A model generated the notes under the pieces. The model ran no database searches. It saw only the letters and a list, made by a program, of their open reading frames with translations, and was not told the origin of the DNA. A stretch of 64,000 nucleotides of DNA from a virus (taxonomy: Duplodnaviria; Caudoviricetes): positions 64,001 to 128,000 of the IMG/VR virus record IMGVR_UViG_3300033121_000493. One strand, 5' to 3'. Position numbers and translations under genes: made by a program. How positions within the stretch are numbered: position 1 is the first letter of the stretch; every line of letters begins with the position of its first letter. Below, in pieces: positions 1-61,033 of this stretch.

Positions 1-476
1 GCGCCAGACAAGCCACCAACTGCACCTTGACCTAGCATGTCCTGTACGTAGTCTGGATTAGCAGCAGTAATAGCGTGCTGTATGTCATTTGGATCAACGT
101 TGGCGTTAGGAGGAGCTATATCACCTTTATACTTGCGATACAAATTAGACCCGGCATAGCCACCAATACCACCTAGCGCGCTACCAAGTAAAGCATCTGC
201 TAATGGACTAGCCCCACCAGTTAACAATGACGCCGCACCCATACCCGCGCCACCAGCCAGCGATGAAATAAGAGCAGCCTTGGCATCCGGCGATAGTTGG
301 TTATACGCTGCAAGCAATCTAGCTTTTAGATCGCTGGCACCAGACATCATGCTATTTCCAACGTTACTAGCGCCAGATGCTAATTGATCTTTAAGTCCAG
401 CTATAGTGGACATAAAGTCGGCTTTCTTAGTTAAAGCCAGTTTAGCTAATTCTTTTGCTAGTGGTTTGGTATCCAC
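1..476 (-). CDS. Partial Ala/Gly-rich probable virion protein (glycine-zipper, K-x-A motif); runs off window
   Basis: Hand translation from GTG at 476: VDTKPLAKELAKLALTKKADF...GGAGMGAASLLTGG...GSALGGIGGYAG; starts 2 nt past the stop of 479-1669. Confidence 0.6.
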   Translation of the reverse strand, partial: MDTKPLAKELAKLALTKKADFMSTIAGLKDQLASGASNVGNSMMSGASDLKARLLAAYNQLSPDAKAALISSLAGGAGMGAASLLTGGASPLADALLGSALGGIGGYAGSNLYRKYKGDIAPPNANVDPNDIQHAITAANPDYVQDMLGQGAVGGLSG

Positions 477-478
477 GT

Positions 479-1669
479 TTATTCTCCGGGCTGATCGAGC
501 TTCTTAATCTTAGTTTCTGTATCAATTAACTGTCCAGCTTCAAACGGATCTATATGACCTAGCTCAAGTTGGCGTCGTAATACAGCTCGCATAAGTTCTG
601 GTCGGTCATTGAGTCGTGGAGATAGGCTAGACAGTGAATTAAACACAGTAATAACATCACCAGGCTTATGCTTTGAAATAACAGGGTCGCTAGCTATCCA
701 CGAATTCAGCGACGATTTCATATTGATTGCGCGTATGCGCTTATCATAATCCGTGGCTTTGGAAAAATCCGAGTTAGTAAACTCGTCTTCGTCGTTATCG
801 CTAGCGTTTGGATTTAGAAGCCCACCTAACTCCTTATACATAGGCATCTTAGGTAATACCTTGTCTTCGATAAATCCTGCAGCTTTTGTTATTGCATCAA
901 TATCAGCCTGGATACTATCAGCCTTATGTTTATTAGCTGCGTATACAGCGGCTTCATCCATAGCTTTCTTAATAAGAACGTATGGCTTAGCACTAACATC
1001 AAACGCTACAGATACCTTTGCACTGGCTCTCTTTACGTTGTTACTTATACCAGCAGCCACCATATCAAGTACTGGCTTAATGGCATCACCGTACGTAGCA
1101 ACAGCGTTTGCTTCTACAACATCAAATGGAATTGCATTAAACCCGGCAAAATACTCTGTAGCCGATTTAACAAAATCCACAATTCTAGATTTAGCAGCCA
1201 GCGTATCTATATCTGCGCGTGCTTTAGCCTCTTTTAACGAACGCCGCTCGGTGTAAGCAGCTTCTAGTATCTTAGCTGGATCTAGCTTTACAAGTTTGGG
1301 CGGGATAAGAAACGCAGCTTTTGCCATAGGCTCAGCTATGTTATCCGTATCAAATGTTTGTGGAGTCTCAAACCCGACAGACTTAGTGGCCGTAGCGGCT
1401 TTTGTCACTTTTGGCCAAATAGTATCAATGGCTTTTTGCGCATCAGCTAATGGAAAAGAACTACCTTTCTCCATAGGATCTGCCGTTTGAAAATGCGATA
1501 GTACCTTGCTGGTGTTATATACTTCAGCCAAACGTCTAACAAACTCAGGCGACAAATTATTACTTACGGCAGCTTTGCATAGAGCGTCCGTAGGATCTGC
1601 GCCATTGTTTGTAGCCTCTATAACGCCTGTTACAGCGTTGACTACTTTAGCTTCATTAGTATTAGCCAC
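479..1669 (-). CDS. Hypothetical protein, probable virion/head-associated (multiple K-x-A motifs)
   Basis: 396 aa ORF, Ala-rich, VTKAAT, MAKAAF, VKRASA, ITKAAG. Confidence 0.6.
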   Translation of the reverse strand: MANTNEAKVVNAVTGVIEATNNGADPTDALCKAAVSNNLSPEFVRRLAEVYNTSKVLSHFQTADPMEKGSSFPLADAQKAIDTIWPKVTKAATATKSVGFETPQTFDTDNIAEPMAKAAFLIPPKLVKLDPAKILEAAYTERRSLKEAKARADIDTLAAKSRIVDFVKSATEYFAGFNAIPFDVVEANAVATYGDAIKPVLDMVAAGISNNVKRASAKVSVAFDVSAKPYVLIKKAMDEAAVYAANKHKADSIQADIDAITKAAGFIEDKVLPKMPMYKELGGLLNPNASDNDEDEFTNSDFSKATDYDKRIRAINMKSSLNSWIASDPVISKHKPGDVITVFNSLSSLSPRLNDRPELMRAVLRRQLELGHIDPFEAGQLIDTETKIKKLDQPGE

Positions 1670-1689
1670 GCGTCACCTACTTTATTAGT

Positions 1690-2613
1690 TTAAAATCCGC
1701 GAACGGAGTTATTGAACGCCTGCATCGCGGCCATGTTTTGCAGCCACGTTTGTACCGTTTTCTTAAGATATTCGTTATTAGCGGCACCTGGCGAATTCAC
1801 GTAATGCATAAGCGACGACATTAATTGCGGGTTCTGCATCAATGAATCAGACGGTAGTGCTTGCAACATTTGCGCAAACTGATTGGCAGCTTGTTCAGCG
1901 CCAAGGTTTTGTTGGTTTTTACTGAAATCGTTGTACTGGTCGTAGCCCCATTTTCCACCAGCCAAAGCACCAGCTCCGGCTAAAGCAGATAGTCCGTGTC
2001 TTACGTATGGATTACCGCTTGCTTGCCCGGCAAATTGCCCTATCCGATTACCTACGCTTGGTGCGTTTCTAATTACACTACCAGTCATTGCATTTGTTGC
2101 GCCACGTAACTTTGAACCAATCTGACCCACGCCTTCTACCACACGACCAAATATATTGCCCAAAGGTGCTGCTCTTTTTGCCATGTTTATGCCAGCACTA
2201 AAAAGACTAGCCTTTTTAACGAGAGCATTACACAAAGCTTTATCTTCTGGGCTACCGTCATGAAGCTCATTCATAACGCCAAGCGCAACCTTGGCCAACT
2301 CAGCCTCTTTGGTAAATCTAGTCTTTAGTTCCGCTAGAGTATCAGACGCCGATTTAACGTTGGGCTTCTTAATCTTAGACAGCGCAAGTTTAACCAGGTC
2401 TTCAGTAGACAAGCCACTAAGCCGTTCAGTGGCACTCGCAAACTTAATAAGTTCGTCATTTACGCAATTTTGGCCAAACTTAGCCACGCACGTATCAATA
2501 AATCCCCGCACAAATGGCGAGTAATTATTATTCACTTGATTTTCGGATTTCACCGTGCTCATTAGTTTCTCGCTTTTGGGCATTTTGTAGCCGTTGTAGT
2601 AATTCTGGCGCAT
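1690..2613 (-). CDS. Hypothetical probable virion protein (K-x-A motifs, Gly-rich hydrophobic segment)
   Basis: FVRGFIDTC, IKFASA, VKSASD, VKKASL, AKRAAP; GLSALAGAGALAGGKWG; true start probably downstream of 2613. Confidence 0.6.
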   Translation of the reverse strand: MRQNYYNGYKMPKSEKLMSTVKSENQVNNNYSPFVRGFIDTCVAKFGQNCVNDELIKFASATERLSGLSTEDLVKLALSKIKKPNVKSASDTLAELKTRFTKEAELAKVALGVMNELHDGSPEDKALCNALVKKASLFSAGINMAKRAAPLGNIFGRVVEGVGQIGSKLRGATNAMTGSVIRNAPSVGNRIGQFAGQASGNPYVRHGLSALAGAGALAGGKWGYDQYNDFSKNQQNLGAEQAANQFAQMLQALPSDSLMQNPQLMSSLMHYVNSPGAANNEYLKKTVQTWLQNMAAMQAFNNSVRGF

Positions 2614-3445: not shown

Positions 3446-5740
3446 TTACACTCGGGCACCTAGATTCAGCTCAAGTCCATCCAGCGACGACCCAGAGCTA
3501 ATTCTACGTTGCTTCAAGAATAGGATCAGATCACCCAGCGCGCTAGATACGTTCTTTAGCTGATCTTCTAATTCTGGCAAGTTCTCATTACCATATCGCT
3601 CTTTGAACTTATCTCCGAACCAGTAGTAGATACACATGATACGGTTTACACGGTCAAGGCCAAGAATCAGATCGCCTAGATACTTACCAATTAAGTCATC
3701 GTTATCGATGGTCTTGATAAGCGAAGCGATGGCCGACGTATCGAAGACTTCTTTTTGACCAGTCTGTGCGGCCTGCATCATCTGTTCTTTTTCGGCTTTA
3801 CCTAGATACGCTTCTGGATTAGCGTCCATCTGAGGTGACTGCATAAGTGCGTTCATCTCATATTGTTCTGGTACGCCAGCATACGAATCAAACCCCATAC
3901 CAGGCTCTGGAATAGGAGGAGCGTAGTCAGCACTAAGTTTCATCAGATACTCAGCCGACTTACCAGGAGCAATATCTACAAGACTATCAGCATCTTTTGC
4001 CGAAGCTCCAGACTTCTTTATCGCAGCTAGAACAACGCGCTGCCGACTAAATGGACCTGTACCGTTAACAAAGTAGCTGTTACTATAGTCACGGCTTACC
4101 TTCACAACACTCATACCAGACTTCATTAGCCCCATCTCAAAAGAGATGAGTGAACCTGGGTCTATAGACGACCACGTATTAACGTTGTCTTTATTTGCAG
4201 ACTTAGCGAGCTTTATGACCTTAGCCGAATTAGGCACAAACAGCGTATTACCCACACATTTGATAGCTATATCTCGGTCTACAATAACTATCTGAGTCAC
4301 ATTCCAGTTACCAACAGTTGGATATGAGCTATCACTACTTTCTGGTAGCGGACTGGATACGTGCATACCGTTTATACCACGTGTCCCTGTGTACTTGGTG
4401 TAATCGCTGGCTGGGTTTCTGGCAAAAGCTTTGCTATTGTCAGACTCAACCCATCCACGTCCTTCGTGGTTTTGCTCAAACGTGCGTAATGGGTTGGCTA
4501 CACTAGGTTCAGCGGTCATGGGACAAACAATTACACGCGTAGTACCATCTTTATCCGTTAGCTTGTTTTCAACTTTGAACGCTACCGTAGCAGCCATTCT
4601 GTTAGTAGCGATCACGTAGTTGTTACCAGTTGTCATGGAAGTGACATCGTCAAGCTTGTCCATAGCTTCAAGATTTTCAGCTCTGTCACCTTCCATCGGC
4701 TTACACCACAATAGTGTAGGCCACTGATAGAAGAACTCGTTATCTTTGTCTAGGTTAACAACTAGTGCAGCTCTGGATACACCCTCGCCAATAGGATGCG
4801 GGGCTATAAACACCCACACATTGACAAATGTGTTCTTGTCCGTAAGCAGTTCATACTTACCACTGATAGTAGGATTTACCAGATTGTACGAACCACGTTT
4901 ATAAATACCGTTATGCTCAGAGCGGTTATCGCGTACGATTATTTCACCGCGCATCAGTGCTTCACGGTCTTTATCGAAGATGGCATCCGCCGCAGCTTCC
5001 TTACCAAAGATTACTTTTACAGTATTGGTAGATCTGTCAATGGCTCTAGCTGCTTTAAAGACATTGAAATCTTTTTCAGCTGCGGTATTTGGATTAAACT
5101 TCTTTGAGTTATCTAACGCACGCTTAGTAATGAGCTTATCTAGCGAGTAGTAATTGGTTACGGCGGCATTGAACCGCTCATCCTTTTTCATAGCGTCCAG
5201 CATCATTACTACTGTGCCGCAGTTGGCTGTCTTCTCTAAGAATTCAGGCAACTGTAGCGCGCTACCGTTTCGTGTCGTAAATACTTTTGGTAGTTCACCA
5301 AGATCACTGGCCGATCGAACGTTGAACAACTCCAACCCAGGACGTCCAGCTCTACCCGTAATACCTCTAATGTCTGGTGACATGACACCTAGCTGTTGTT
5401 CAGTTCTAGGTTCTTTCTCGCCAAGCTTAAACGGTCTACGATTAAGTAGAAACGAAATCCAATTATCCGCCAGCGGAAGGAAAAGATCCTGTTCTTTCAA
5501 ATACATGAAATTACATTTGAGCTCACCGTTCAAATAGAAGCACGGCACAAGTATCAGCTGCTCGCCAACTTTAAACCCAAATACACCAAGTGCGTGAGTT
5601 TGATCGTCGTTTGCGTCGACTATCTCAAACCCCAACATGTAATCCATTAATGACGGAGCTTTATCGCGCAACTGAGCGTGCGATAAATTTGCAAGTGTTA
5701 GTTCAAAATCACTATCTGGAGATTGTGCTATAGACGCCAC
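3446..5740 (-). CDS. Large hypothetical protein, probable virion structural protein
   Basis: 764 aa ORF with repeated K-x-A (EKTAN, TKRAL, GKEAA) in a putative structural block. Confidence 0.6.
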   Translation of the reverse strand: MASIAQSPDSDFELTLANLSHAQLRDKAPSLMDYMLGFEIVDANDDQTHALGVFGFKVGEQLILVPCFYLNGELKCNFMYLKEQDLFLPLADNWISFLLNRRPFKLGEKEPRTEQQLGVMSPDIRGITGRAGRPGLELFNVRSASDLGELPKVFTTRNGSALQLPEFLEKTANCGTVVMMLDAMKKDERFNAAVTNYYSLDKLITKRALDNSKKFNPNTAAEKDFNVFKAARAIDRSTNTVKVIFGKEAAADAIFDKDREALMRGEIIVRDNRSEHNGIYKRGSYNLVNPTISGKYELLTDKNTFVNVWVFIAPHPIGEGVSRAALVVNLDKDNEFFYQWPTLLWCKPMEGDRAENLEAMDKLDDVTSMTTGNNYVIATNRMAATVAFKVENKLTDKDGTTRVIVCPMTAEPSVANPLRTFEQNHEGRGWVESDNSKAFARNPASDYTKYTGTRGINGMHVSSPLPESSDSSYPTVGNWNVTQIVIVDRDIAIKCVGNTLFVPNSAKVIKLAKSANKDNVNTWSSIDPGSLISFEMGLMKSGMSVVKVSRDYSNSYFVNGTGPFSRQRVVLAAIKKSGASAKDADSLVDIAPGKSAEYLMKLSADYAPPIPEPGMGFDSYAGVPEQYEMNALMQSPQMDANPEAYLGKAEKEQMMQAAQTGQKEVFDTSAIASLIKTIDNDDLIGKYLGDLILGLDRVNRIMCIYYWFGDKFKERYGNENLPELEDQLKNVSSALGDLILFLKQRRISSGSSLDGLELNLGARV

Positions 5741-8835: not shown

Positions 8836-9054
8836 TTATTTCAATGATGTTACTTGCACGTTTTGCTTAATACCCATTTGCGCCGCAAGTCTATTAAAAT
8901 CTTCTTCACCGGCCCTAGACACAGCGATGAAACCTTGATCGCTTTCCCACATTATAACAAGCAAATAGCCGTCGTTGTCGTAGACGGCTATTTGCTTTAC
9001 TTTTTCAGTTTCTTCGACTGTGTGTAGCGCGCTACGCTCAAACACACATTTCAT
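8836..9054 (-). CDS. Small hypothetical protein directly upstream of the beta'-C gene
   Basis: 72 aa, tight packing, globular-looking composition. Confidence 0.6.
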   Translation of the reverse strand: MKCVFERSALHTVEETEKVKQIAVYDNDGYLLVIMWESDQGFIAVSRAGEEDFNRLAAQMGIKQNVQVTSLK

Positions 9055-12128: not shown

Positions 12129-12656
12129 TTAGTCGCGAGCGCGACGCTGCTTCTCGTCCATGTCCACGGTACGCTGGAATCGAATCGCGTACACGCCAGG
12201 AGGCAACACGAACGCGCCGTGCTCGGGGTGATTCAGCGTGCGCTTCTTCTCCAGCGCCAGAATCGCCCCATCGTACTCGTTGGCCTCGGCCAGGGTGTAC
12301 ATGGTCACACCTTCTCCCGAGTCCAGGATGTGTCGCGAGCCGGGAGTGTTACCCGGAGCGAGCTGCAGATTGACGGTATCCATCTTGCGGATACCGACCT
12401 TTCCTTCCTTGCTGTCGCGGATGACGTGCTTCTTGCCTTCCATCTGAGCACGCAGGATCATCACATCACCCTGGCGAACGAAATCGCCAACGCTGGCAGC
12501 CTCGGGAAAGTTCTGCGGCTTACGGCGATCGATGACCTCGCCGGGGCGCACGGGAACCTTGCAGCTGGCCACTTCCTTGCCGCGATTGATCACGGTCTCG
12601 ACAGCACGAGCGGCGGCAACAGCGGCGGGAGTCTTCAGAGTAGCAGTGGTCGACAT
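12129..12656 (-). CDS. Conserved hypothetical protein (RQGDV...H...HPEHG..LPPGVY family), GC-rich
   Basis: Motifs typical of the family that I recall occurring next to DUF6745 genes; start reassigned to ATG at 12656. Confidence 0.65.
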   Translation of the reverse strand: MSTTATLKTPAAVAAARAVETVINRGKEVASCKVPVRPGEVIDRRKPQNFPEAASVGDFVRQGDVMILRAQMEGKKHVIRDSKEGKVGIRKMDTVNLQLAPGNTPGSRHILDSGEGVTMYTLAEANEYDGAILALEKKRTLNHPEHGAFVLPPGVYAIRFQRTVDMDEKQRRARD

Positions 12657-12836
12657 TTGTCTTTTTCCTTGTCTTGGTTTCGGATTCAGAAACAGGTCAC
12701 AGCGATACAATCGTTATATACAGCTTAGTAAAAGTCTACGGCCTACAGGCACAATACCCAAACAAAGTTTGTATTTTTATTATCTATATGCTCATACTAA
12801 CGCGTACTTTTAGATTATCAACTGTAGATCACTAAA

Positions 12837-14099
12837 TTACGAAGTTGCGAGGCACTTGCCCTGGGACGTAGCGCCGCCAGGCAAATTGGCCATCCAGGTC
12901 TGGGCGTCCACGCACTTGACGACTTCACGCCCAACACGAATGGGGTAAGTACGTCCAGTTGACGAGCAAGCGCAGATCATTACGGTACCGTCGCGGTCGC
13001 CGCAATCAAACAGCACTTCATGCGTTTTGTCAATCGGGTTCTCGCGCTCGTCGATGATCTTGGCTTCCACCAGCTGAACGTAGTTTGGCCAGCCGTACTG
13101 CTGGATCATGATACGGCGAACTTCTTCGTCGCTGGCGTCATTGAAGTCTTTGATCGTCAGCGTCTCTGGGCGCATAACGATCTGTTCGGTGACCGGATTG
13201 CCTTCGATGCAGTAGATCTTCCAGCCATCACGGAATGCCAGCGCAGGACCAGTTGTGTTGTGCAATTGGCCTTCAGCTGTAATGTGGATCTCGCTGGGGC
13301 GCTCACAGAGAATGATGAAATGCGTGTTCAGCCACGCATACCCGCCAAACTCAGACGCCTCTTCGAAATCGCGTGCGATCGGCGCGATTTCCATACCGAG
13401 GATGTCGCGGCAAAACGATGTGTACGCGGGCCAGGCATCCCACAACGGAATACCCTGACAAACGTGCCAGTTCTGCTTCTGCAGCGCTGTGACGGTAGCC
13501 GACACATCTTCTTTGTCGTTCTTGGTGGTTGTCGAGCCCTTTTTCAGGTCGCTCGGTACCAGCGGCGCGATCGCCTTGAACGAGAGCTCGACAATCGCCT
13601 TGATGGATTTGTCGATGAGATCTGTGCTGAGATCGATGTCGTTCTTGTGCATGCGGTCAGCGAGCAGCTTGGTGTACCACTCCTCGCCTCGCCGCCAGAC
13701 AGCCGTCACTGCGTCTTCAGAGTTAATCAGAGCTTTTGTGAACGCCGCCGCCAGAGTACCGACGACAGGCGACTGCACATGAATGATTGCGTGTTCGGGC
13801 CACGGGAGCTCAACTTCCCAGAACGTATTACGATACGCCGTTGCGGTGCGCTCGAAGTCGACGGGTTCGGTCGACAGTGAGATGTCCTGCCAACGCTTCT
13901 CGTGCGCGTCGCGTAGTTTGTTTTGCTCGGGGGTCAGTGACTCGACGGACGGGGCGCTCACCGGCGAGTATGTAGAACTTTTTCGGCGCGGCTGGCCAGT
14001 CACAGGGTCGAGGGGGTGGTAGGCGGCTACCGCCGGTGCTGGCGTTTCAACGGTGGTTTTCTTGGACGCGGGCTTGGCTTTTTTGATTTGTTTGGCCAC
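12837..14099 (-). CDS. DUF6745-like domain protein, GC-rich
   Basis: CERP...GQLHNTTGPALAFRDGWKIY..EG, EEVRRIMI..YG; GTG start at 14099 with AAGGAG RBS. Confidence 0.7.
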   Translation of the reverse strand: MAKQIKKAKPASKKTTVETPAPAVAAYHPLDPVTGQPRRKSSTYSPVSAPSVESLTPEQNKLRDAHEKRWQDISLSTEPVDFERTATAYRNTFWEVELPWPEHAIIHVQSPVVGTLAAAFTKALINSEDAVTAVWRRGEEWYTKLLADRMHKNDIDLSTDLIDKSIKAIVELSFKAIAPLVPSDLKKGSTTTKNDKEDVSATVTALQKQNWHVCQGIPLWDAWPAYTSFCRDILGMEIAPIARDFEEASEFGGYAWLNTHFIILCERPSEIHITAEGQLHNTTGPALAFRDGWKIYCIEGNPVTEQIVMRPETLTIKDFNDASDEEVRRIMIQQYGWPNYVQLVEAKIIDERENPIDKTHEVLFDCGDRDGTVMICACSSTGRTYPIRVGREVVKCVDAQTWMANLPGGATSQGKCLATS

Positions 14100-14216
14100 A
14101 GAGTGCTCCTTGAGCTGATGATTGGTTTCCAGGGAAGACAGAACAAGACACGACACTATAGACATAGTGTATAAAGATATGCCTAGACAAATGTGTAGCG
14201 CGCTACAGCCTAGTTA

Positions 14217-14839: not shown

Positions 14840-15505
14840 TCATAGCATATCTAAATCCTCATAGCTTGGTTTACGTGCCATAGCTATAACATTTACAATT
14901 TGTTGAATCTGATCTAAGTTGTTGTTGGCAACAGCCTGCGTGTACGCACCGAATAACTCTTCAAATATCTTGCTCTTCTGTTTATAGTTTACATGTAAAC
15001 TTACACCGCACTTAAACAAGCCGCCTAGCTTGTTTTGGCGTTCTTTATCTGGTATTTCGCCTACGTCTATGTTACTGATCGTTTCAATCATCAAACGAGG
15101 CCAGTACAGACGTGAAGCACTGTGATCGTTTTGTGTATAAGCTCCTGAAATCTGCGGCAAGGATTTTATCAGTAGCGCATAAAGCCAAAAAGGATTAAAA
15201 CCAATATAAGGACGTAAAACAACGTATTGCTTATAGCAGTGTTTGTGTTCACCGTCAGGCAAAGTATCGACTATGCCAACACCTAAATTTTTATAGTAAA
15301 ATGGCATTGTTAACGAGAGCACGCCGTATACCAACACTGTATCGTTTAATTTGACATCTAATCTCCCACGCTCACGACTGTCCACAGGGTCATTAGTGTA
15401 CTTAAATCCGTACTTATTAAAGTTTTTAAGGCTTATTGTACGCGAAGTGGGATCATCTACACCTGATCCTGATAATAAAAGTTGGTACAAATGGCCTAGT
15501 TTCAT
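14840..15505 (-). CDS. Half-size type I restriction specificity subunit (HsdS/TRD)-like protein
   Basis: MKLGHL...VVLRP...PFWLYALL...PRL..ETISNIDVGEIPDKERQNKL followed by a helical tail resembles one TRD plus conserved region. Confidence 0.55.
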   Translation of the reverse strand: MKLGHLYQLLLSGSGVDDPTSRTISLKNFNKYGFKYTNDPVDSRERGRLDVKLNDTVLVYGVLSLTMPFYYKNLGVGIVDTLPDGEHKHCYKQYVVLRPYIGFNPFWLYALLIKSLPQISGAYTQNDHSASRLYWPRLMIETISNIDVGEIPDKERQNKLGGLFKCGVSLHVNYKQKSKIFEELFGAYTQAVANNNLDQIQQIVNVIAMARKPSYEDLDML

Positions 15506-18340: not shown

Positions 18341-18923
18341 ATATCGAAGCACAATACAGCACATGTTGTTAAGCGTATACCTTACGCGACTGTACAGCAG
18401 ACAGTACAGCATCTTCTATCTCATCGCACAAGCTTATTATCATGTCATCCATTGTAGGGCTTATCTTCCAGGACAAGAGCCAATTCAACTTTGGCATTAA
18501 CCTATTTAATGACGCAGTGTGCGCGGCATATACCATTACTATGTCATACGCTCTAACGGTTTCTCGAAGTTGTAAGCTTGCCTGAAACGGGCTAGCATCA
18601 TACGCAAAGCGTACACCGAGACAGTTGTCAGCAGGCAATTACATATCTCCAGCAACCAAGTGAAACCACGTCTAAGATAAACCGCCGCACAGCCACCATA
18701 TAAAAACAGCAATTGTAATTATCATTATAGCTATAAGTGCGTCAGCACATTTTGCCGCTAGACGATTATTACGCTCATCGTCTGTCACGGGATGTTATCC
18801 TTGTGATCCAAAAATATCAATTCCAAATATCCCCAACTGGACATTTATGATTTCTCTGATCAGATAGTACCAGAAATCCGGCATAGGGTGCGTTTGCATT
18901 TGTGTCTCCTTACGCGTAGCGCG

Positions 18924-19100
18924 CTACCGCTTTGGAAAACGGCGAATTCCAAAAACATGTGTATGCAATTTATCAACGACAGAGTCAATCTTAGTTTTGT
19001 CTTGAGTATCGTAGTTACCGTTAGCAATATCGCTCTGAATCTTAGCCACCATTGCTCGGCGAGTCACCAGTACGTCTGACATACGCACATCGCGTTTCAT
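18924..19100 (-). CDS. FlgM-like (anti-sigma-28 C-terminal domain-like) 58 aa protein, absent from the ORF track
   Basis: AAGGAG RBS; MKRDVRMSDVLVTRRAMVAKIQSDIANGNYDTQDKTKIDSVVDKLHTHVFGIRRFPKR matches the R..V..I...I..G.Y pattern. Confidence 0.55.
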   Translation of the reverse strand: MKRDVRMSDVLVTRRAMVAKIQSDIANGNYDTQDKTKIDSVVDKLHTHVFGIRRFPKR

Positions 19101-19112
19101 ACTGACTCCTTT

Positions 19113-19595: not shown

Positions 19596-20133
19596 AGGTT
19601 TAGCCTTTTGTCTTGGGCTTTGTGTGTTTTTTGCGTGGACGTACTGTCATATAGGTACTGACGTTAGGCGAGAACTGGCGTAGCTTGTCGTTCACAATAT
19701 GATCCATTGATTGAGTATTCATACGCATATGAATAGACCTAGACATACCGCCAGCATACGAAAAATGCATTAGATCACTTATTTTTATGGCTATCGCAAA
19801 CGATATATCCTTGGCAATAAAAATTGGTATAGAATAATAGTCGGCATAGCTACATCTACTTAGGGCAGAACGCAGATAGTGAGGGACGTTACTCACGACT
19901 GAATAGCCCAGGATATTCGAATTTACACCAAACCTTAAACAGTTGCCTGTGCATAGTACTAATTACATGTGCCCTACGGCGAGATGTTAATTGCTTATTT
20001 ATATCCATCACCCGATAAACATTCAGTTGCACTTGAATCGATGTTTGTTTGGCAGCAGGACCGTCGATAGCTGCTTTAATGACATCCACTTCGTACGCTG
20101 TGTGCTGTAGATAATAGGGAACTATAGCGGAGC

Positions 20134-20547: not shown

Positions 20548-20606
20548 TCGACATCTCCGTGTGGCGCGTTGTAGAAATTTACTAGACTAGAATACATTGT
20601 GTAGCC

Positions 20607-28325: not shown

Positions 28326-31300
28326 TTAGCCCTGTAGTATTTTAATTCTGGTGTCTGCGTTTATTTCTCCACGTCTGAACGCCGCTATAGCGTCCGCTTT
28401 GGTAGCAAATGTTTTTGCTTCATGTGCGCTTTGATCGTGAGTAGCCCTAAATAGCCCGTGCAAAAATTCCTGGATAGGTGCATAGTGCACGTCAAAATTT
28501 CTAGCACTGAGTAAATTAGCGCTAGGCATAAGCTTACGCTTAGCTTCACTGACAGCTTCATCACTGACAGGCACGTGGAACTGCATTCTGTCACCGTCGA
28601 AATCAGCGCCGTAGCCACTGACGATTGTAGGGCTTAGCTGCATGGTTTGCGTTTTAGCCAACACAGGCCACGCAGCCATTATTCCGAACTTGTGTAGCGT
28701 AGGAGCTCGGTTGATGAGTACCGGACGCACTTTCATTTCTTCAATCAAAGCGTCCTTAGCAATTCTATCTTTGTTGGCAACCATATTAACAGCCTGTACG
28801 GCAGGAGTACCCCGTCTGACCAACGACCTAATGATAAATGGTCGGTATAGAGTCCATGCTTTCTCTTCTGGCAAACCTACTTGATCCATGTCTAGCGACG
28901 GGTTTGGCGTAATAACAGCGCTACCGACCATGTCAGTTGTGCTGCCTATGATCTTACGCTGAAACACTGAAAACTTTGGCGACGACCGCAGTCCTAGCGC
29001 ATGCGACAAAATGCCTTTTATGTTCTTCTCTTGTAACTTTGGCTGCAGCGGATCTGACAATCCGACCAGTGCCTTGAACGAGCTGTACAACGCTAAACGC
29101 TCGTCACCTGCGGCTTCGTGGCCTAACGTATCTGTTACGTCCTTTACGTTGTTGTTAGCACGTATGATCTCTTTGTACAAGTAGTTAGGGTCACTAACTA
29201 TTGTCATACCTTTAGGCCCAGTTGCGATAGGCCGATACTGAGGCGGCATAATAGGTACTTTAGTCAGCATCAGCTCTTCTGGCTTAATGCCTGTTTTCTT
29301 TAGCATTGTAAAAACGCGCAACCGCTTAATAGCGTCGTCGCGGTTTGTTTTTGATCCATTAGTGACTAGATCTTTTAGTCGATCAATCTCGCTGTGTACG
29401 TTGAGAGACTGTAGCGCGCTACGCAATGCTTCCGGCCCTGTCTTTTCTTTAAGCATGCGTTTACCGGCTATAACATCTTCCAACTGACCTTCAGTAAGCC
29501 CCAGCACTTTACGGATAGAATCTTCGAAAACAGGATTTGGTAATGGGTGATTAAGATTAACGTGCGTAAACCCTGTCCCTTCAGGACCACCAGTTAAACC
29601 TATATCAAACAACCCACCACTTATCGGCTTCATCGTATCGAAATCAAGAGTATCGTCGCTCTTGACTTCGCCTCTAGACATCTTGTCTATGTCTTTATCA
29701 GTCAAAGCCATGATGTTTACGAAGTTACCGGTCTTGCTAACATTGATGCCAGCAGACCTTAAATCGTCCATAAACTTCTTGTACACGAATGGTGCTTCTG
29801 GTGTTGGCGGCGGATACCCCAAACGAAACGCACGCCAGAAATCGTCATTTCGCTGCCCGCGTATGAGCTTAGCATCACGCAGTACTTCAGTAGCACCAGC
29901 AGACAATAATGACATTGTCTCTAGCCCACCTATACGCTTGGCAGAGCCTTCACCACCTTTAGCAGGAACTTTGTCAATAGTGTATGAACCGTCGTCTGCA
30001 CGAGCGTCGGCTTTGTCTTCTGCAGTATGGTGTAGTTTCATCCAGTACTGCACGCCAGACAACACATTATTCACATTAGCGTTTCTATTTGGATCAAATA
30101 GAGTTTCAGTATCCTTTATGCCGTATTTCTTTAGCTCGTCCTGTACAGTCTTTAGATTACTTCCATCTTGGAAAGACGGTACAACATATTTTTTACCTAA
30201 CTTAGCTGCTACCTTACCAAGCGCGAGCTCAAGTATGGCCGCAGGGTTAGATCGAGAGATAGTACCAAACGGATGGATTAGCAACTCTAGCGGATTTTTA
30301 TCACTATCGTGCGGCATTTGATCATCAGGTACTATTGATGAAATAACACCTTTACCGCCGAAGCGCATCGTTAGCTTATCACCAACCACACATGGTCGGT
30401 ACGCTTTTACGATAACGTTTACATCTTTTGGTCCGGCATGTACATCTGTAACTATTCCGTCGTCATCGTATTCCCACACGTGCGACGAATCCATAAATCT
30501 AGCTTTGCTACTGCGCGTTAATACGCCTTGACCCTTAGCAGATTTTTCAGAAATACTAAGAATCAGGGGATCACCCTTCTTCACAACAGTTCCTGGTTTG
30601 ATTAAACCGTTGTCTGTAAAGTTCGCTAGCTGAGCTTTATTGTACGTTGTAGGAAACGCGCTGATAAATGCATTCCTACTAACTTTCTGCCCAGGCTCAA
30701 TGTCCATTGAATGCTGGTACATATGCTCAGACGCCATTTTCTTAGCGGCGCTCTCGCTAACAACAATGGCATCTTCTACGGTAAGACCTTTGAACGGTAA
30801 GTAAGCAGTGCGTAAATTTTTGCCTAACGCCAACTCACCTTCGTCATTTGTGAAATTTGTTTTAGCCAGTAACTGGCCAGGTTTGACATAGTCACCTGGC
30901 TTTACCATAGGTGTATTGTTTACAAACCCACGTCGATTATACGGAAAATTATCGTACAGTTCGTAGCGTTTAATGCCGTTGGGAGTTTTGATACTGATGC
31001 TATCTTTATCCAACTTAGTAACTATTCCAGTTGCATCAGATCTGACTATGCCAGTTTTGCTGCCTAAGAATCTTTCAAAAGAATCATTAGGCTCACCAGA
31101 TGGCCTGCTTGTCTGAACAAACGGTGCTTCGCCGTCTTTGATCGCTAGAGCTTGCGTTGCCATTCTGGCTACCATGTTAGTTCTGTGGCCCTTGATGGAC
31201 GACAGAAACGGCACAAGGTGCGCCAACGTAGACATCATGTGCTCTGGATGCGGGAGCTCGTAGTCAACTTTGCTTGGATCTACGTACTTAATGCGACCGC

Positions 31301-36515: not shown

Positions 36516-36884
36516 TTAAAGCTACCTTATTTATCCCGACCATTCTAGCTACGTGCAGCATAAAAGCAAAACTAGTAATACGCTACGACTCGTTAGATTG
36601 TATGGCATTGTACACGCGACGCAATTCAGCGCTGTATTCGCTAGCCGGATACTTAGCTAGGTAGCGCGCTAGCAACAACAACACGCGTCTACGTTCTACG
36701 TCAACTCCGGCGTTAAATGAGTTTGCATGAAAACCTACAATGTTATATTCGTTTACAAGTGTATTGATTTTGTCGAGCTCTGACATATTTGGTTTGGTTG
36801 GCATATTAATCTGCTGTTAAAACTGCTAAGAATACATATCCCGTTAGAAACACGACAATAATGACCCATAACGCAGGACACACA

Positions 36885-37298: not shown

Positions 37299-40200
37299 CT
37301 ATATAACCTTTATATCCGCGTCACGTAGCGCGGTTTGAAGTTCAAAGTTGCTGCTGTACTTAGCCATGAAAAATTCCAGAGTAGCAAGCACAGATGAAAC
37401 GTAGTCCGAGCTTTCACCTCTACGTTCTAGGGCAAGCTTTTCACGAACAAGTAGGGCTTTACTTACACTTAGCGCTTGAGTTAGCCCAAGGCTATTCTGT
37501 TTTTGCACAGTCACCATACGTCAGTTTCGTCTTTCTTAGTACGTCCTCGAACCAATTTCGTAATGATAGCAGTGCTGTCATGTACGGATATCGCCAGAAC
37601 ATATCAACATACAGCGCGCGACCCATGTCCCATACGCCGTGTATCATTATGGTTTCACGTATGTGCACACGTGCTGTTAGGGTCAAACTATCCGTAAAAT
37701 TACTGCCAGCCATAATACAGTGTAATCCGAACCAAGCAACAGATTGCTCTGCTCTTACCTCTATCTCGTAAGATCTATTCGTAGACATGATAACCTGTAT
37801 TAGCCAAAGCGATTGCGGCTTCGCGTTTAGTCATGCGATAATTCCATACTTTCCGACGTTAGCCTTAGCAAGTCATGTAACCATTGATACAATACTCGCG
37901 TACTCCTATACCGGTCATCCGACAAGCTATAATTGATTTTTTTATAGTCAAACATCGGTATCGCGATTGTTCGCGTAGGTTGGCTAATTCTGCTAACGCC
38001 TAAGTGCGCGGCACAGAATAGCACTACACGCACTTCCCGACCGTTATATGCTTTAATGCTGTTAGCTATTTGGCTACGCGTAAAATACTCCTCACTGGCC
38101 AAGTATGTCCTCTAGATTAGCATTCAGTGCCTGTAGCGCGCTACCAGGATTTATCTGTATGCCGCACCGCTCTAGTGTTTGCACCAAATGGCTTAACTGC
38201 ACTTCAGTACCGTCATACATACATTTGGCTAGGTCTAGCAGTGCGTCAAATTCGTTAATCGACATTACCACACGCTGTGCGTTGGCTGGTGTAAGTGTAA
38301 GCGGTCTATTTTTAGCGTCAACAATAGTTTCCGTAGCCGCGTCGTAGCGTAGGGGTAAAACAAAATCGATATCCATTTTTCACCGTTGGGTTAGGCTTAG
38401 CTACAATTCAATTCTTAGAAACAGTTGCGTCATTTTACGGTACACGTAAGAATATGCCATACTTGCTTTGCGTGTGTAAGCCAAGCATGGGTAGCCGTAA
38501 GCAGAATAAAGCTGAACCATTATTTCTCGATAAACTGCTCTTGGACCAAAATGTGCCACACGCATATTTACGCTATCATATAAAAAACCATCTAACTGTA
38601 TACAAAACTCTACATCGCGAGAATATGTGCTTAATTTGCGCGTCAAAATTAACCTTTATGTTTCGGTAAAACGGATGGTATAAGACCAGCCAGGCGCAAA
38701 ACTTTTTTTAACGTACGGGTCACAAGTATATTTGGCTGCGTAGCGTAGGGTGGTCTACTAAGTAGCGACTCCTGTGAAAAGAATTTACGGTACGTATTAT
38801 GGTGTAATTTATGTCGTATTATTACGTGCCACCACACGGGACGTACAAAGTCGTGCTTGTTTACGCGAAAAATTAGACGCGATAACTCAATGTCTATGAT
38901 TGGTCTAAACGATATATCGCCGCTATGTTTACTGCGTTTGTGCATCAAGACTATACAACCCAGTCACCAGGCCACGCACGTAGCTCTTTTTTAGTTTTCG
39001 GCTGTAAATCTCTAATCATACCTTCCCATTCAAACAGGTACAGCCGAGTATATGTTAACCTACAACCTGTTTTGGTATTAACGGCTTCGTCAAAATAATC
39101 AAACGTACCGCAATCCCTAAACACGCGTACTTCAAAGTCACCAACTTTGTATTTTGCTGACATTACCTCGAAAGACAGGCGCTGAGGAAGGATATTACCT
39201 AATTTTACGTCTATAAGCGTGCGAATAAACTCAAGTAGAGTTCGCTGTATCTGTTTTGGTGACTGCTTCGAGACTCGCTTCATCGCTGGCCTGCGCTTCA
39301 ATCGGAATGACGCATATCATAAAAGTTTTGCCAGCAGGCAACCCATCTACTATATCACTACCGATATTACCTATTGTGTTATTTACTGAACGTATGACTT
39401 TAAACTCTGGGTCTATGTAGTACTTATGCGGACCTTTAAGCGCAGCTTCCAACTCATCAATCATTGGTTGAAAAATTGAATTTGTCTGTTGCCCAGCGGC
39501 GTACTTTAGATAGCTAATAGCCGTCATTACAGTTTCAACGTTTATATGGCGTGCCACGGTTCGTTTTCTCCTTTAAAGTATGGGTGTTCAATATGGCCTG
39601 CGCCACTGATAAAACCACCAACTGCAACGCACATCCAGCCAGGAACAACGCATCGCGCAGTATGTCAGTATAGGCGTATACAAACGTAGCCGTGCTACAA
39701 GCAACGTGCTTTGTTACTGGATCTCGATATAGTTCGCCGTAATGATCTGCATACAAAGCCATTGCCGTATCGCCAGCATGCGTAAGCTGTATGTAGTGCG
39801 TGGGTTCTAATAGTAAACCAAACGGCACAAATAGAATAGGACAACTTGACGCAGATATCTCTGTACGGCATAAATTGTTAAAGTTAAAAATTACTACCGC
39901 GCCTTTCACTCTACCGCCAGTTTATCGATGCTATACGTCATTGCCGCGAGTATTTGCAGATTAAAACTACGAATATCGAACTTTATGAGTGCTAAATAGA
40001 ACGCCTGATGAATGGTTGCTACACGCGTAATAGCATTAACACACACGCTATACGTTGAATAATGGCTAAGGTCATGCGAAAATACTATTTCATTAGATTG
40101 ATTTTTTTTAAACCAAAGTTTTGGGTTAGCCATTTACAGCATTCTCTTTGATTTTCCTCATTGCAGCCTCAACACTGGACACACACTCAAGGTACGCGGC

Positions 40201-47349: not shown

Positions 47350-47742
47350 TTATTTTCTCGCATAAGTAGGTGGTACTTCAACCTGCGCTGCGTCATATTT
47401 TACAAAGTCTATCCACTCTATGTAAACCTTCCAGTTACCATTATGACATTTTCTGTCTATAAACACAATAGCTGACTTACCACTAGTGGCATTCGTGTAT
47501 AGAGTAGAAACTAACTTTGTGTACTCATCAAGGTCTTTTTGGACAGCCAGATTAAACACAGCGGCGTGAAACACGCCACCTTTTTTTACGTTAGATTTTT
47601 CACCATTTCTATATAGCGGAGGACGCGCGCCTATAAATGGAGCGTCATTATCTCTGTTGAATACTTTTAGACCATTTTGATCTGGATGGTCCTGTCCAGA
47701 CATTATACGAATGATCTCATCATAACTGATCTGTCTGCTCAT
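47350..47742 (-). CDS. Hypothetical protein
   Basis: 130 aa, coupled to neighbouring genes. Confidence 0.6.
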   Translation of the reverse strand: MSRQISYDEIIRIMSGQDHPDQNGLKVFNRDNDAPFIGARPPLYRNGEKSNVKKGGVFHAAVFNLAVQKDLDEYTKLVSTLYTNATSGKSAIVFIDRKCHNGNWKVYIEWIDFVKYDAAQVEVPPTYARK

Positions 47743-49315
47743 CTGTTATACCGCTTCTTCTACGGATGTCAGCCGTCATTTGTCTATAGTAATCAGCTAA
47801 ATCTCGTTTACGTAAATCGTCAACATTATCAGACGTTACGGATAAGCCTTTTCTAGTTAAGCTGCCTAATCCAGCCCCAGCTATAAATGGGATTCCTAGT
47901 AGCGTAGCTATAGCCGTTGGACCTAATTTTGACAAACCCAACCCGCTGGCAATAGCGGCTGTAGTCATTTCACCAGATGTTGGTAAGGCTGCTGTGCCAG
48001 CTAGATTAGTAGCAGCAGCTGGTAGCGCTACAGCAGGATTAGCTTGCTTAGTAATCAGTTCATCTAAACTATCTGGCGTGTACCCTAGCTCTGCCATCTT
48101 AGTCAAAAATCCAACTTTAAATGCTTGCTTGCTATCCACGTTAGCGCCTTTCATAAATCCTTTTAAAGCTGAATATATTGTAGCTGCGCCTAGGGCTGTG
48201 TTCTTGAACCAACTAGGCGCGCCTAGCGCGCTAGACACAGCGTAAGCTGCACCGACGGTAGGAATAGCGTTACCTATTACATCAGGCAACGCAGATAGTA
48301 ACGAGCCCGGACTCGCGCCACCAGTAAGGCCGACACCTTGTTCATGCCCGGCCTGGGCTATCAGCTGCTTCATCTTAACCCGTTCCATCAGATTAGGATA
48401 CGGATTACGCTCAATCTCATCCATCGCAGTTGACACAGAAAAGCTAGGTCGCCAAAGCTGGTCGTTATAGCCATCTGCTTTCTTTGTCAACACATCAGGT
48501 AAATGTACCGGCGTGGCTGCAGGTAATTGAAACTCTGGCTGCGGCAGAGAATGCAACATCTGTGAGCGCCAATCAGAAAAGTTACGTACAGCTGGCGTAT
48601 TAAAGTAACCGCCATATAGCTTTTTGTGAACAGACGATTGCAGTAACCCTGGCAAACTTCCCAGCAGAATGCCAGCTAACGTCATAGTGGTACGCGATCT
48701 GGATGGGTCAAAGCCAAGACGCTCTAGAATAGGGCTACCTATAAATCTACCGCCCAGTCCGCCTAGCGCGCTACCGACACCCAATGTAACACCAGGCTGC
48801 TGAAACATACTATTAGCTTTCTTTTCAGCTAGTTCTATTGGGGTCTTGCTGCCGTCAGTAGAGCAGAAGGACAAATCAGTACACGAAAACTTAACGCCAG
48901 ATAACTTATCGTTACCAGCGTATGCTTGTCCTCTATCTTTTTTTACGTAAGCAAGTGTCACGTGAGGTACAAACCTTTTGCGCGTATCCACAACGTCTGT
49001 TTTATCCCGTACAGCATCTCGCAATCTTGAAAGACCGTCGCCGGTTACTGATACAAAAACCACATCGCCATCGTCATTAGAAAAGTAGTCAGTACTACCT
49101 AACTCCACATCACAACCGTACTGGTCTTGTAACGCAGCCTGTACACTGGCTACGTCATTATCCTTTATGCCGTACTGTACAGTTACATGGGGTTGTTTCT
49201 CAAATTCAACCACATCATCCTTATTGATAATCTGTAAAGCTAAATTGACAACGCGTTCAGCTATATCGCTGGGTAGGTCTAACTGAACAGAGCAGTACTT
49301 ATACGTATCAGACAT
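47720..49315 (-). CDS. 2H phosphoesterase domain fused to a K-x-A/Gly-zipper putative virion domain
   Basis: PHVTVQYG and PHVTLAYV (two HxT motifs) in the first ~165 aa; EKKAN, TKKAD, MKGAN, TKQAN downstream. Confidence 0.8.
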   Translation of the reverse strand: MSDTYKYCSVQLDLPSDIAERVVNLALQIINKDDVVEFEKQPHVTVQYGIKDNDVASVQAALQDQYGCDVELGSTDYFSNDDGDVVFVSVTGDGLSRLRDAVRDKTDVVDTRKRFVPHVTLAYVKKDRGQAYAGNDKLSGVKFSCTDLSFCSTDGSKTPIELAEKKANSMFQQPGVTLGVGSALGGLGGRFIGSPILERLGFDPSRSRTTMTLAGILLGSLPGLLQSSVHKKLYGGYFNTPAVRNFSDWRSQMLHSLPQPEFQLPAATPVHLPDVLTKKADGYNDQLWRPSFSVSTAMDEIERNPYPNLMERVKMKQLIAQAGHEQGVGLTGGASPGSLLSALPDVIGNAIPTVGAAYAVSSALGAPSWFKNTALGAATIYSALKGFMKGANVDSKQAFKVGFLTKMAELGYTPDSLDELITKQANPAVALPAAATNLAGTAALPTSGEMTTAAIASGLGLSKLGPTAIATLLGIPFIAGAGLGSLTRKGLSVTSDNVDDLRKRDLADYYRQMTADIRRRSGITDEQTDQL

Positions 49316-53461: not shown

Positions 53462-54100
53462 CTAATTGTCAGCTGATAGCTTAGCGAATGATACCGTCTT
53501 TATACAAACAGTGGGGATTTCTACACTTACACCGCAGTGTTTTACTTTGTGTTCGGCATTACTGCCATCGCTTAAAAGAATAACTAGAGTGAAATCGCTG
53601 CCTATGGGCGGCTCAAAGTGTAAGTCATCGTCGCCAACTGTGGTGGAGAACACCAGCGTTATAAGATTGTCGTCGGCAATAACATCAGCCGGACGCGTTT
53701 TAAACTTACCAAAGTCACCAACCATAGTAACTTGCATAGGGCGGTCAGCATACTTTGGAAATGGCGTACCACTAGAAGTAGTTTCTTCTCTAACTACTAC
53801 CGGCGGCAGCACTGGCTGCGTGGCTACTACTGAACGTTTAGTGGCTGCTGTCTTTTTTTTAGCGCTGTTTTGTGGCGAAGGCGATTCAGACTCGGCCGAT
53901 ATAGTCGTAGACTGACCGATGGTCTGTAGCGGAATAGTGATTATGCCATTTGCCGAATTCATATCTGGCCTACCACCTTCTGAATCTTTATACGAACTAG
54001 GTATTACGGTCATACCTTGTTCGTGGTCTCTGTAATACTGGTTATTACGCTCTACGCCTTCAGCGCCTAACAGTGAACTTAGATCTTTCGCCGCTTTCAT
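53462..54100 (-). CDS. Hypothetical protein
   Basis: 212 aa, GAGG RBS. Confidence 0.6.
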   Translation of the reverse strand: MKAAKDLSSLLGAEGVERNNQYYRDHEQGMTVIPSSYKDSEGGRPDMNSANGIITIPLQTIGQSTTISAESESPSPQNSAKKKTAATKRSVVATQPVLPPVVVREETTSSGTPFPKYADRPMQVTMVGDFGKFKTRPADVIADDNLITLVFSTTVGDDDLHFEPPIGSDFTLVILLSDGSNAEHKVKHCGVSVEIPTVCIKTVSFAKLSADN

Positions 54101-54300
54101 ATTTACCTCAATCGTGTAGCGCGCTACAGTCTATGATCCCTAAAAATTTGCCAACTGTTTAATCGTAGTTTTGCCCACTCGGGCTTGTGACAGTAACTAG
54201 TATAGTGTCAGCCTGATTTGCTTCAAATAGGAAGCGTACAGGAGATACCATACTAGTTACTATACTCTACCACGCTGAATACGTCCAGCTGGCTACATAC

Positions 54301-58187: not shown

Positions 58188-58643
58188 TCACCTCCTATTC
58201 TTACGCTGCGGCGAAATACCGCCTACAGCTTGCTGCGTTTGCTTACAGGCTGCTTATGCCTGTAGCGCGCTACCGACAGGCCGGCAACAATACCGACAAA
58301 TCCGCCAGCAACACACCCAAAAAATGCAAACAAAGCCCACCAGCCGATGCTGACCGCTACAGGTAGTGTCATCACCGGCCCTTCGCGGCGGCTGCGATGA
58401 TGCCGAACAAGACCAGCAGAAAAATAAGCAGCGTGGACAGAAAACACGCGTCTGGCCACTCAAGAAGTGCCAACATGATTTGCTCTCGCATATGAGACGT
58501 GTTTGACGCCGAACTCAAACCCAAGAGCTAGCAATTTGGCAGCGCAAAAAGCCAACTCTTGGGTTTTACAATCTGCAATAACTACGCGCCCGAAAAAGGT
58601 AACCGACGTGTCGACTACCTCGAACGGCGCTACGTTACTACAG

Positions 58644-59684: not shown

Positions 59685-59693
59685 GACAATCTC

Positions 59694-60074
59694 CTAGTGG
59701 CTATTAGCCACAATTACTGTTCCGTCGGCGGCGGTCAGCTTCACTTGCACTGTGCGAGTGATTTTAGGCTGTAGCCGTTGGCCTTGGAACATCAGCAAAC
59801 AGTCTGCGGAAATAATTGAAGTGTACTCTAAATAAGTACTAGCCATAGCGTCTACGTCATCAAATTCTAATACCTGTATATCGTTGTGGTTAACTACTAC
59901 TAAGTAGCCATGAAACAACGGTAATACAGAACTTGAGCTGGATTCTTGCGGCAATGCGTCGCCCAAACCAGATGAAGCTAATTGCTCATCCGGTTTGGGC
60001 GAACCGTCGGACTCCACCATTTTACTTCCTTGGAGGCTTGGCAGGCATGGAGAATGTTCGTTTATTAGAATCAC
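59694..60074 (-). CDS. Hypothetical protein
   Basis: 126 aa; probable true start at MVESDG. Confidence 0.5.
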   Translation of the reverse strand: MILINEHSPCLPSLQGSKMVESDGSPKPDEQLASSGLGDALPQESSSSSVLPLFHGYLVVVNHNDIQVLEFDDVDAMASTYLEYTSIISADCLLMFQGQRLQPKITRTVQVKLTAADGTVIVANSH

Positions 60075-60501
60075 TCTTCACAGCCTGGTTTGGTTCTGGT
60101 TGCGGAACGCTCGGCGGCGTATCATTTGTGCTAGCAAGTAACTGGGCTACTTGTAGTCTAGCGCTTATGTCCACGGCGTAAGCGTCGTCAAGTGTCATTA
60201 CAGCTACAGCGAGAATCTCAGTGACCTGAACATACGTATCGCCGTTTTGCTGTATGACTAGAGAACTGGAAGTTATTACAGGACTGGTGCCTGGAGCAAC
60301 AGTCATTTTATTTTCGTCGGCCCACTTGTTGAACTCTTCGTCAACTGGTGGCTGCTCAGAGACAAGTTCCCACTCAGAGCCAGCGGCCCTGTAAACAGTT
60401 ACCGAACTTAACTTTATCAGTTTAATAGGCTTATTGGCTGCGCTAGAAAGCACGATCGATTCTCCCCCGGCTGGTAAGAATTTTCTGCGCACAATCAACA
60501 A
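60022..60501 (-). CDS. Hypothetical protein
   Basis: 159 aa ORF. Confidence 0.5.
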   Translation of the reverse strand: MLIVRRKFLPAGGESIVLSSAANKPIKLIKLSSVTVYRAAGSEWELVSEQPPVDEEFNKWADENKMTVAPGTSPVITSSSLVIQQNGDTYVQVTEILAVAVMTLDDAYAVDISARLQVAQLLASTNDTPPSVPQPEPNQAVKSDSNKRTFSMPAKPPRK

Positions 60502-61033
60502 TGTGTGACGGCGCAGTGTCCCAGACCAGCTTAGCGGGTAGGCCGGGAACTATGTTTAGCTTGCCCTTATTGCCAACGGGCAAAAATACCTGCACACGCG
60601 CCGGTAGCGCGCTAGAGGTGAGAATGAGATCCTCACCTATGTCCTCAACGTCGATGATCCTCGAATGGGTAAACCAAACAAGGTTTTTATTGGCGCTATA
60701 AAAACCTAGAGTACTGACATACCCTGCAAAGGCATCCCAGGCCTCTAGGTTTATAGCTTCCACATAGCGTCCCCAATTGTACACGCCGCTGATCACCGTT
60801 TTGCGGTAATCAATTATGACGCGATCCTGTATGCCTGCTTCCAGTTCAAACTGATCTGGAATGCTGTAGGCAATACCGGCGTGTACGTACAGGGGAGCTA
60901 AAGAAAACATCGCATATTGTCCAACTACTTCTCGTACTGACGCTGGTCGAATTGTTTTGATTTCACGACGTTGTGCACGTCGAGTATCGTGGATTTCACG
61001 CGACCAAGTGTCATCAGAGTTTCGTATAAACAC
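60443..61033 (-). CDS. Hypothetical protein
   Basis: 196 aa ORF. Confidence 0.55.
   Translation of the reverse strand: MFIRNSDDTWSREIHDTRRAQRREIKTIRPASVREVVGQYAMFSLAPLYVHAGIAYSIPDQFELEAGIQDRVIIDYRKTVISGVYNWGRYVEAINLEAWDAFAGYVSTLGFYSANKNLVWFTHSRIIDVEDIGEDLILTSSALPARVQVFLPVGNKGKLNIVPGLPAKLVWDTAPSHIVDCAQKILTSRGRIDRAF

Follow-up and report, generated by a model that had tools for sequence, protein, structure and literature searches.

A genome-wide array of an exact palindrome, mostly embedded in genes, in a large RNA-polymerase-encoding phage

Cluster O mycobacteriophages (Corndog and its relatives) carry a 17-bp dyad repeat, TGTTCGG-N3-CCGAACA (PMC4351075, PMC6439249). Corndog possesses 34 exact copies and 3 variants, and a dimeric DNA-binding protein was predicted as the reader by the authors who described them (PMC4351075). 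Genome-wide exact dyad-repeat arrays have thus been known in Cluster O since 2015, without assigned function or reader. Described here is an array of the 10-bp palindrome TAGCGCGCTA, found in a 64,000-nucleotide stretch of phage DNA (hereafter the window) that comprises bases 64,001–128,000 of the 202,582-bp IMG/VR virus record IMGVR_UViG_3300033121_000493 (genome G000). The Cluster O repeat is the closest published case. The array is a kind of phage feature seen before, here in an unrelated large phage.

Three further systems are relevant for comparison. KorB operators (OB, TTTAGCSGCTAAA) of the IncP plasmid RK2 are palindromic, occur about once per 5 kb, lie partly away from promoters, are read by a dimer and act at long range. 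Stoperators of Cluster A mycobacteriophages, which PMC4351075 also discusses, are about 30 dispersed copies of a 13-bp repressor site, active away from promoters. HIP1 (GCGATCGC) and the alternate cyanobacterial palindromes are GC-rich, strongly over-represented words of coding and non-coding DNA. All three are functional or formal analogues, each of which fails at least one defining feature in G000.

Thirteen exact copies of TAGCGCGCTA are present in the window, all at the positions listed in the preliminary description of this DNA, and 34 in the whole genome. It is the most over-represented 10-mer of the genome. Dinucleotide shuffles of the window gave a mean of 0.17 copies and a maximum of 1. 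The genome expectation is 0.15 to 1.7 sites for Markov orders 0 to 5 (1.7 at order 5); at order 3 it is 0.64 sites, or 0.53 with the motif masked. A codon-aware null of 300 synonymous-codon shuffles within genes yielded a mean of 4.5 copies, 4 being the untouched intergenic ones, so that about 0.5 is expected in coding DNA and 30 are observed. SAL tripeptides are spelled T-AGC-GCG-CTA in 22 of 52 cases in the proteome, where codon usage predicts less than 1%, and 8 of the 14 ARY tripeptides bear the motif. The enrichment, predicted to vanish under a higher-order or codon-aware null model if false, survives both. A composition or codon artefact is ruled out by Markov orders 0–5 together with the dinucleotide and synonymous-codon shuffles. 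The motif is confirmed as real and strongly non-random.

The preferred site is symmetric, 12–14 bp in length, of the form B-S-TAGCGCGCTA-S-V. In the half-site stack (n = 68), position −1 carries 51 G, 15 C, 2 A and no T, and A is absent from position −2. Both longer forms had been described as frequent, which holds for the 12-letter exact palindrome GTAGCGCGCTAC (19 of 34 copies) and fails for the 14-mer TGTAGCGCGCTACA (3 of 34 only). One-mismatch variants are at chance level (15 observed, 11–12.5 expected) and are spread over half-site positions 1–4; two-mismatch variants number 89 against 115 expected. The motif is all-or-none and is kept perfect. Of the 77 strand counts of its 8-mer sub-word TAGCGCGC, 68 fall within the palindrome, and the other 9 compare with 14 expected; since the sub-word is not enriched outside the palindrome, the symmetric whole is selected. 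The centre is fixed: CGCG occupies 34 of the 80 TAGNNNNCTA words, every other centre occurring at most twice. A bipartite type-I-like site, TAG-N4-CTA, is ruled out by this fixed centre. The symmetric footprint of 12–14 bp is of the palindromic kind read in parS/ParB or OB/KorB systems (13–16 bp). A short asymmetric word enriched alone, as in Chi-type signals, was not found in the motif.

The G000 record, from a wastewater virome, is 100% complete by CheckV, without end repeats, and has a guanine + cytosine (GC) content of 45%. The open reading frame (ORF) model comprises 291 ORFs, of which 271 are minus-strand, and coding sequence makes up 93% of the genome. Across the genome, 22 copies lie in frame xSAL, 8 in frame ARY and 4 between genes, so that 30 of 34 (about 88%) are in ORFs; the third reading frame of the motif would read a TAG stop. 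Use of the SAL and ARY frames, intergenic copies and selection at the DNA level had all been proposed earlier. These claims are borne out, the last by survival under the codon-aware null, use of both stop-free frames and the bias in SAL spelling. Relative positions within ORFs are uniform, from 0.04 to 0.96. Density is 1.8 per 10 kb in core ORFs and 1.4 per 10 kb in non-core ORFs (P = 0.3). The motif is shown to be independent of gene boundaries and of gene age, and its status as a genome-wide signal, not a gene-linked one, is supported. The 4 intergenic copies lie 0–31 bp upstream of start codons, a nearness that carries no weight because intergenic DNA is so short here.

In the RNA polymerase gene, the site overlies an Ala-Leu pair that is conserved in all homologues, without indel; the Ser and the preceding T-ending codon are phage-specific. 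In other core proteins, sites fall at residues that are variable among homologues. Substitutions, some of them non-synonymous, therefore created the sites; no element was inserted. A 12-bp insertion or mobile-element footprint is ruled out by the indel-free RNA polymerase site and by unrelated flanks. The palindrome is shown to be forced into coding DNA, essential genes included, through codon choice and amino-acid changes at tolerant positions. Copies are mostly intragenic, at some cost to proteins. The sites of the window are listed in Table 1.

Table 1. Copies of TAGCGCGCTA in the window and the candidate gene pair discussed in the text (window coordinates; strand in brackets; aa, amino acids)
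Feature	Position	Location	Frame or remark
Site 1	174..183	in minus-strand ORF running off window start (458 aa in genome)	xSAL, LLGSALGGI
Site 2	5255..5264	in core ORF 3446-5740 (-), 764 aa	xSAL, RNGSALQLP; indel region among homologues
Site 3	9025..9034	in small ORF 8836-9054 (-), 72 aa	xSAL
Site 4	14196..14205	intergenic	GTAGCGCGCTAC copy ends 26 nucleotides upstream of DUF6745 gene ATG
Site 5	18917..18926	small-paralogue region	overlaps only doubtful 63-aa plus-strand ORF 18888-19079
Site 6	29412..29421	in fused RNA polymerase beta/beta' gene 28326-32804 (-)	encodes S1129-A1130-L1131
Site 7	36662..36671	in small ORF 36583-36804 (-), 73 aa	ARY
Site 8	38134..38143	in small ORF 38092-38376 (-), 94 aa	xSAL
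Site 9	48224..48233	in ORF 47720-49315 (-), 531 aa	xSAL; second palindrome GGCGCGCC directly after
Site 10	48764..48773	same 531-aa ORF 47720-49315 (-)	xSAL; 540 bp from site 9
Site 11	54117..54126	intergenic	17 bp upstream of start of ORF 53462-54100 (-)
Site 12	58263..58272	in small ORF 58223-58459 (-), 78 aa	ARY
Site 13	60605..60614	in ORF 60443-61033 (-), 196 aa	xSAL
Candidate gene pair	12129..14165 (-)	DUF6745 protein 12837-14165, 442 aa; partner 12129-12710, 193 aa	candidate only

At window positions 48221-48243, site 9 is fused to the second GC palindrome, forming the composite CTAGCGCGCTAGGCGCGCCTAG.

The mean gap between copies is 5.4 kb, and the density over the whole genome is about 1 copy per 6 kb. 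In the linear test, the gaps have a coefficient of variation (CV) of 0.64, where random placement gives 0.97 (P = 0.003), and the longest of them spans 14 kb (P = 0.01). The initial 11.2 kb and the final 12.5 kb of the record are free of copies (P = 0.02). The gap previously noticed across 19–29 kb of the window is real (18926-29412) and not exceptional by itself. No significant period was detected between 300 and 6000 bp.

The phage is a member of a large, mostly uncultivated family with genomes of about 200 kb. Its fused multisubunit RNA polymerase beta/beta' comprises 1492 aa; by this protein, its closest relatives in culture, at only about 31% identity, are Salmonella phage Arash and the Vibrio phages D69, D148 and D181. 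The RNA polymerases of closer relatives (P0001–P0014, from Logan and ENA assemblies) are 53–69% identical. Twenty family genomes or fragments were assembled and each was scanned for over-represented palindromes. Two results are far above the rest of the scan, namely G000 (−log10 P of 44) and G040. G040 is a complete genome of 203,910 bp with terminal repeats and 58% GC, in which AGATATCT occurs 42 times against 2.0 expected and the 12-bp palindrome AWAGATATCTWT 39 times, mostly in ORFs, with a mean gap of 5.1 kb and a CV of 0.67 (P = 0.004). The same array is carried by G042, G041 and G045. The RNA polymerase of G001 is identical to that of G040, and G001 is probably a fragment of the same phage. 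A thinner array is present in G004 (17 AGATATCT copies, CV 0.54, P = 0.005).

The G000 and G040-clade arrays have in common the RNA-polymerase family, the 12-bp length, density, evenness, embedding in ORFs and a gene pair consisting of DUF6745 and its partner. They differ entirely in spelling, that of the G040 clade being AT-rich in a 58% GC genome, and are separated by array-less lineages. On a tree of RNA polymerases, obtained by a quick search only, G000 forms a deep separate branch, divided from the AGATATCT clade by array-less lineages (G003, G007, G009, G010 and others). Orthologous site positions were found neither between G000 and the AWAGATATCTWT clade nor between G001 and G004, which share about 70% nucleotide identity. 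As no positions are shared despite the kept motif, its identity and density are maintained while positions turn over.

Searches farther afield gave no further instance of the G000 array. In IMG/VR, the 14-mer TGTAGCGCGCTACA was found on 42 contigs, each with a single chance copy, and none other than G000 with more. A search of JGI metagenomes with the RNA-polymerase-site pattern gave 6 unrelated chance matches. No array was detected in Salmonella phage Arash or Vibrio phage D69. Palindromes of G002 (CGCCGGCG) and G003 (CCTGCAGG) are randomly spaced and are probably a different, compositional effect.

Compared with Cluster O, G000 likewise has more than 30 invariant dyad-symmetric copies genome-wide with very few one-off variants, and sites that are neither tied to promoters nor oriented. 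It differs in that its palindrome is contiguous, 12–14 bp, without spacer and without sequence similarity to the Cluster O repeat. The density of Cluster O is one copy per 2 kb, against one per 6 kb in G000, and about 30–60% of the copies lie in ORFs in Corndog. G000 is a 203-kb phage with its own RNA polymerase and no ParB-like protein, which Cluster O possesses.

The best reading of the array, given about an even chance of being correct, is that the copies are docking sites, laid out as a lattice over the genome, at which a homodimeric (two-fold symmetric) protein binds duplex DNA in a sequence-specific way. It is preferred because the site is exact, symmetric and 12–14 bp long, is kept in number and coverage, and is respelled between clades. 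The predicted reader would most likely be phage-encoded and co-evolve with the site. Selection would act on the number of sites and on chromosome coverage, not on exact positions, and the reader's action would be chromosome-wide. Starting at the individual sites, the protein may bridge DNA, spread along it or mark it. Its role may be compaction or organisation during replication and packaging, or global silencing. Comparable proteins would be KorB at its OB operators or the binder that has been proposed for the Cluster O repeat. The G000 and OB sites share the TAGC/GCTA half-site core and a density of about 1 per 5 kb across the replicon. They differ in that OB sites are mostly promoter-linked and RK2 is a plasmid, not a phage. 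A parS-type signal had also been suggested and is not borne out: ParB_N (PF02195) and KorB (PF08535) domains were not detected in G000. Cluster A stoperators lack symmetry, follow the direction of transcription and lie mostly between genes, whereas the G000 site is symmetric and mostly intragenic.

Several points weigh against the docking-site reading. No reader protein was found among about 60 ORFs scanned with Pfam, PHROGs or PADLOC, most of which are orphans. With the record treated as circular, evenness weakens (CV 0.78, P = 0.077). The evenness tests were chosen after the data had been seen, although evenness is reproduced in relatives. Binding, nicking and modification are not separable by sequence alone. 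The reader may also be host-encoded.

A homodimeric nuclease would account for the exact 12–14 bp palindrome no less well than a non-catalytic binder. The sites may accordingly be cut or nicked by a site-specific two-fold symmetric endonuclease, starting recombination-dependent replication or relieving torsion, much as T5 or phiKMV-type phages have localized single-strand interruptions. An SbcCD-type nuclease and UvsW-like helicase module is present in G000, and even chromosome coverage would suit a role in replication or recombination. This is nevertheless unlikely: no candidate nuclease is linked to the motif, 34 double-strand cuts would fragment the genome, and known phage nick sites are asymmetric and restricted to a single strand.

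That no phage reader was found also fits a motif read by a host factor, either as a Chi-like signal taming a host nuclease or as sites for a nucleoid or defence protein that serve as shield or decoy. Reading identically 5' to 3' on its two strands, a palindrome would be useful to a linear genome attacked from either end. Known Chi sites are 5–8 nucleotides long and asymmetric, and sub-words of 7–8 nucleotides are not enriched outside the full palindrome, unlike the prediction for a single-strand Chi-type signal. That a separate clade uses another spelling is in keeping with a phage reader that co-evolves with its site, although it could also follow from a change of host. A host reader is judged improbable.

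An array of the HIP1 type, as suggested in the preliminary description, would be produced by a methyltransferase and very-short-patch-type repair converting near-cognate words to the palindrome. Like HIP1, the motif is GC-rich, strongly over-represented and found in coding and non-coding DNA, and a methyltransferase may be supplied by the host. HIP1 is, however, an 8-mer with about 1 copy per kb and cognate orphan methyltransferases; the longer G000 site is sparser and its spacing is more even than random. No match to C5 or N4/N6 methyltransferases (PF00145, PF01555) was found in the 202.6-kb genome, with positive controls and with Dam-type PF02086 left unsearched. One-mismatch neighbours are neither depleted nor position-biased, and the full set of 30 neighbour words provides only about 12 sites, not enough for 34. 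Density is also independent of the residence time of a gene in the genome. The suggestion is not upheld, and this origin is very unlikely. An RNA-level role as hairpin, processing site or mRNA-mRNA pairing element is scarcely conceivable: with 271 of 291 ORFs on one strand, almost every copy is transcribed, but the same gene orientation would make dyad symmetry needless in an RNA signal, a loop-less 12-nucleotide palindrome gives a stem of 4–5 bp only, and six folded 40-nucleotide contexts showed no consistent structure (z-scores −1.9 to +1.8).

If docking sites are read by a phage protein, the DUF6745 protein and its partner (Table 1) are one candidate reader, a weak lead and doubtful as such. 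The pair has 55% GC in the 45% GC genome. Its two genes are adjacent, and among G000 proteins with homologues in G004 and none in array-less near-complete genomes, their products are the only full-length cases. The pair recurs in synteny in G040 and G042. In the family genomes examined, homologues of the pair (about 35% identical) were confined to the AGATATCT-array clade, namely G004, G040 and G042. DUF6745 is absent from G003, G007, G014, G015, G016, G032, G036, G038, Arash, D69 and 28 other fragments. G005 carries a separate, more distant DUF6745 gene together with 6 copies of AAATCCGGATTT, where 0.01 would be expected; both are missing from its sister G007. The GC content and the restriction of homologues to the AGATATCT-array clade suggest that the pair was horizontally acquired.

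More broadly, the DUF6745 protein and its partner might constitute a previously unrecognised, horizontally mobile chromosome-marking module of RNA-polymerase phages of about 200 kb, with a dimeric reader, although this is not probable. Reader specificity would then be respelled by lineage, as GTAGCGCGCTAC in G000 and AWAGATATCTWT in the G040 clade; a phage would acquire the module and then rewrite its own genes, one site per about 5 kb. Several results count against the pair as reader. The AlphaFold model of the DUF6745 protein (predicted local distance difference test score, pLDDT, 74) resembles no DNA-binding fold, neither PDB nor VIA-align yielded a convincing fold match, and Microcystis phage LMM01 has DUF6745 and no palindrome array. 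Matches in the viral library are other DUF6745 proteins only. An autoregulatory site upstream of the DUF6745 gene was rejected: the arrangement of G000 does not recur in G004, whose nearest copy is within the gene itself.

A 'half-HsdS' ORF (14840-15505) neighbouring one copy was rejected as reader, giving no Pfam match even at E up to 10 and no PDB sequence match. Its single-sequence fold has a pLDDT of 35, and it has no homologues beyond its own cluster. This cluster occurs on 4 contigs, and near-identical phages are therefore present in other samples. A search for defence-system families near the GC-rich genes turned up only a DEDDh exonuclease.

Other repeated words and features were observed in G000 and in the genomes compared with it. 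In G000, the hexamer palindrome GAGCTC is 2.4-fold over-represented genome-wide (66 sites, 27 expected) and, unlike the main motif, randomly spaced (CV 1.0); GGAGCTCC occurs 6 times against 0.85 expected. In G003 (L104-L113), CTGCAG is 1.9-fold enriched (204 against 110 expected), and GGTTTCTAATTAC, AT-rich and asymmetric, occurs 13 times in a 60% GC genome and looks promoter-like. G006 (L165-L169) carries the 18-bp palindrome TCTATTGGCGCCAATAGA 5 times, at 9852, 33222, 46171, 54202 and 82924, mostly intergenic; it looks operator-like and distinct from the coding-embedded arrays. CCACAAGGTCCACA and CCACAAGGACCAC are each present about 20 times in G005 (L114-L122) and point to a coding unit that is repeated. 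A segment of about 0.9 kb in G001/G040 aligns with G004 twice, at its first and at its last bases (L093, L103); G004 is probably terminally redundant though classed as 'linear'. L154, an unrelated IMG/VR contig of 12.3 kb, contains ACACCGGTGT 5 times against 0.02 expected and may represent another dense palindrome array in an unrelated virus. Many RNA polymerase homologues (P0001, P0008, P0011, P0015, P0016 and others) are 300–900 aa longer and contain intein/LAGLIDADG domains (PF14528, PF14890); intein invasion of RNA polymerase is common in the family.

Work on the array is limited in that the phage is uncultivated and its nearest accessible relatives lack the motif. The DUF6745 pair provides one concrete, cheaply testable candidate reader. 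The behaviour of the Cluster O repeats is now found in an unrelated large RNA-polymerase-encoding phage, with sites forced into essential genes. Two separate clades with different spellings and the same length, density and evenness offer a comparative handle on regularly spaced sequence tags. Whole-chromosome processes that may need such a tag are organisation, packaging, self-marking and global silencing.

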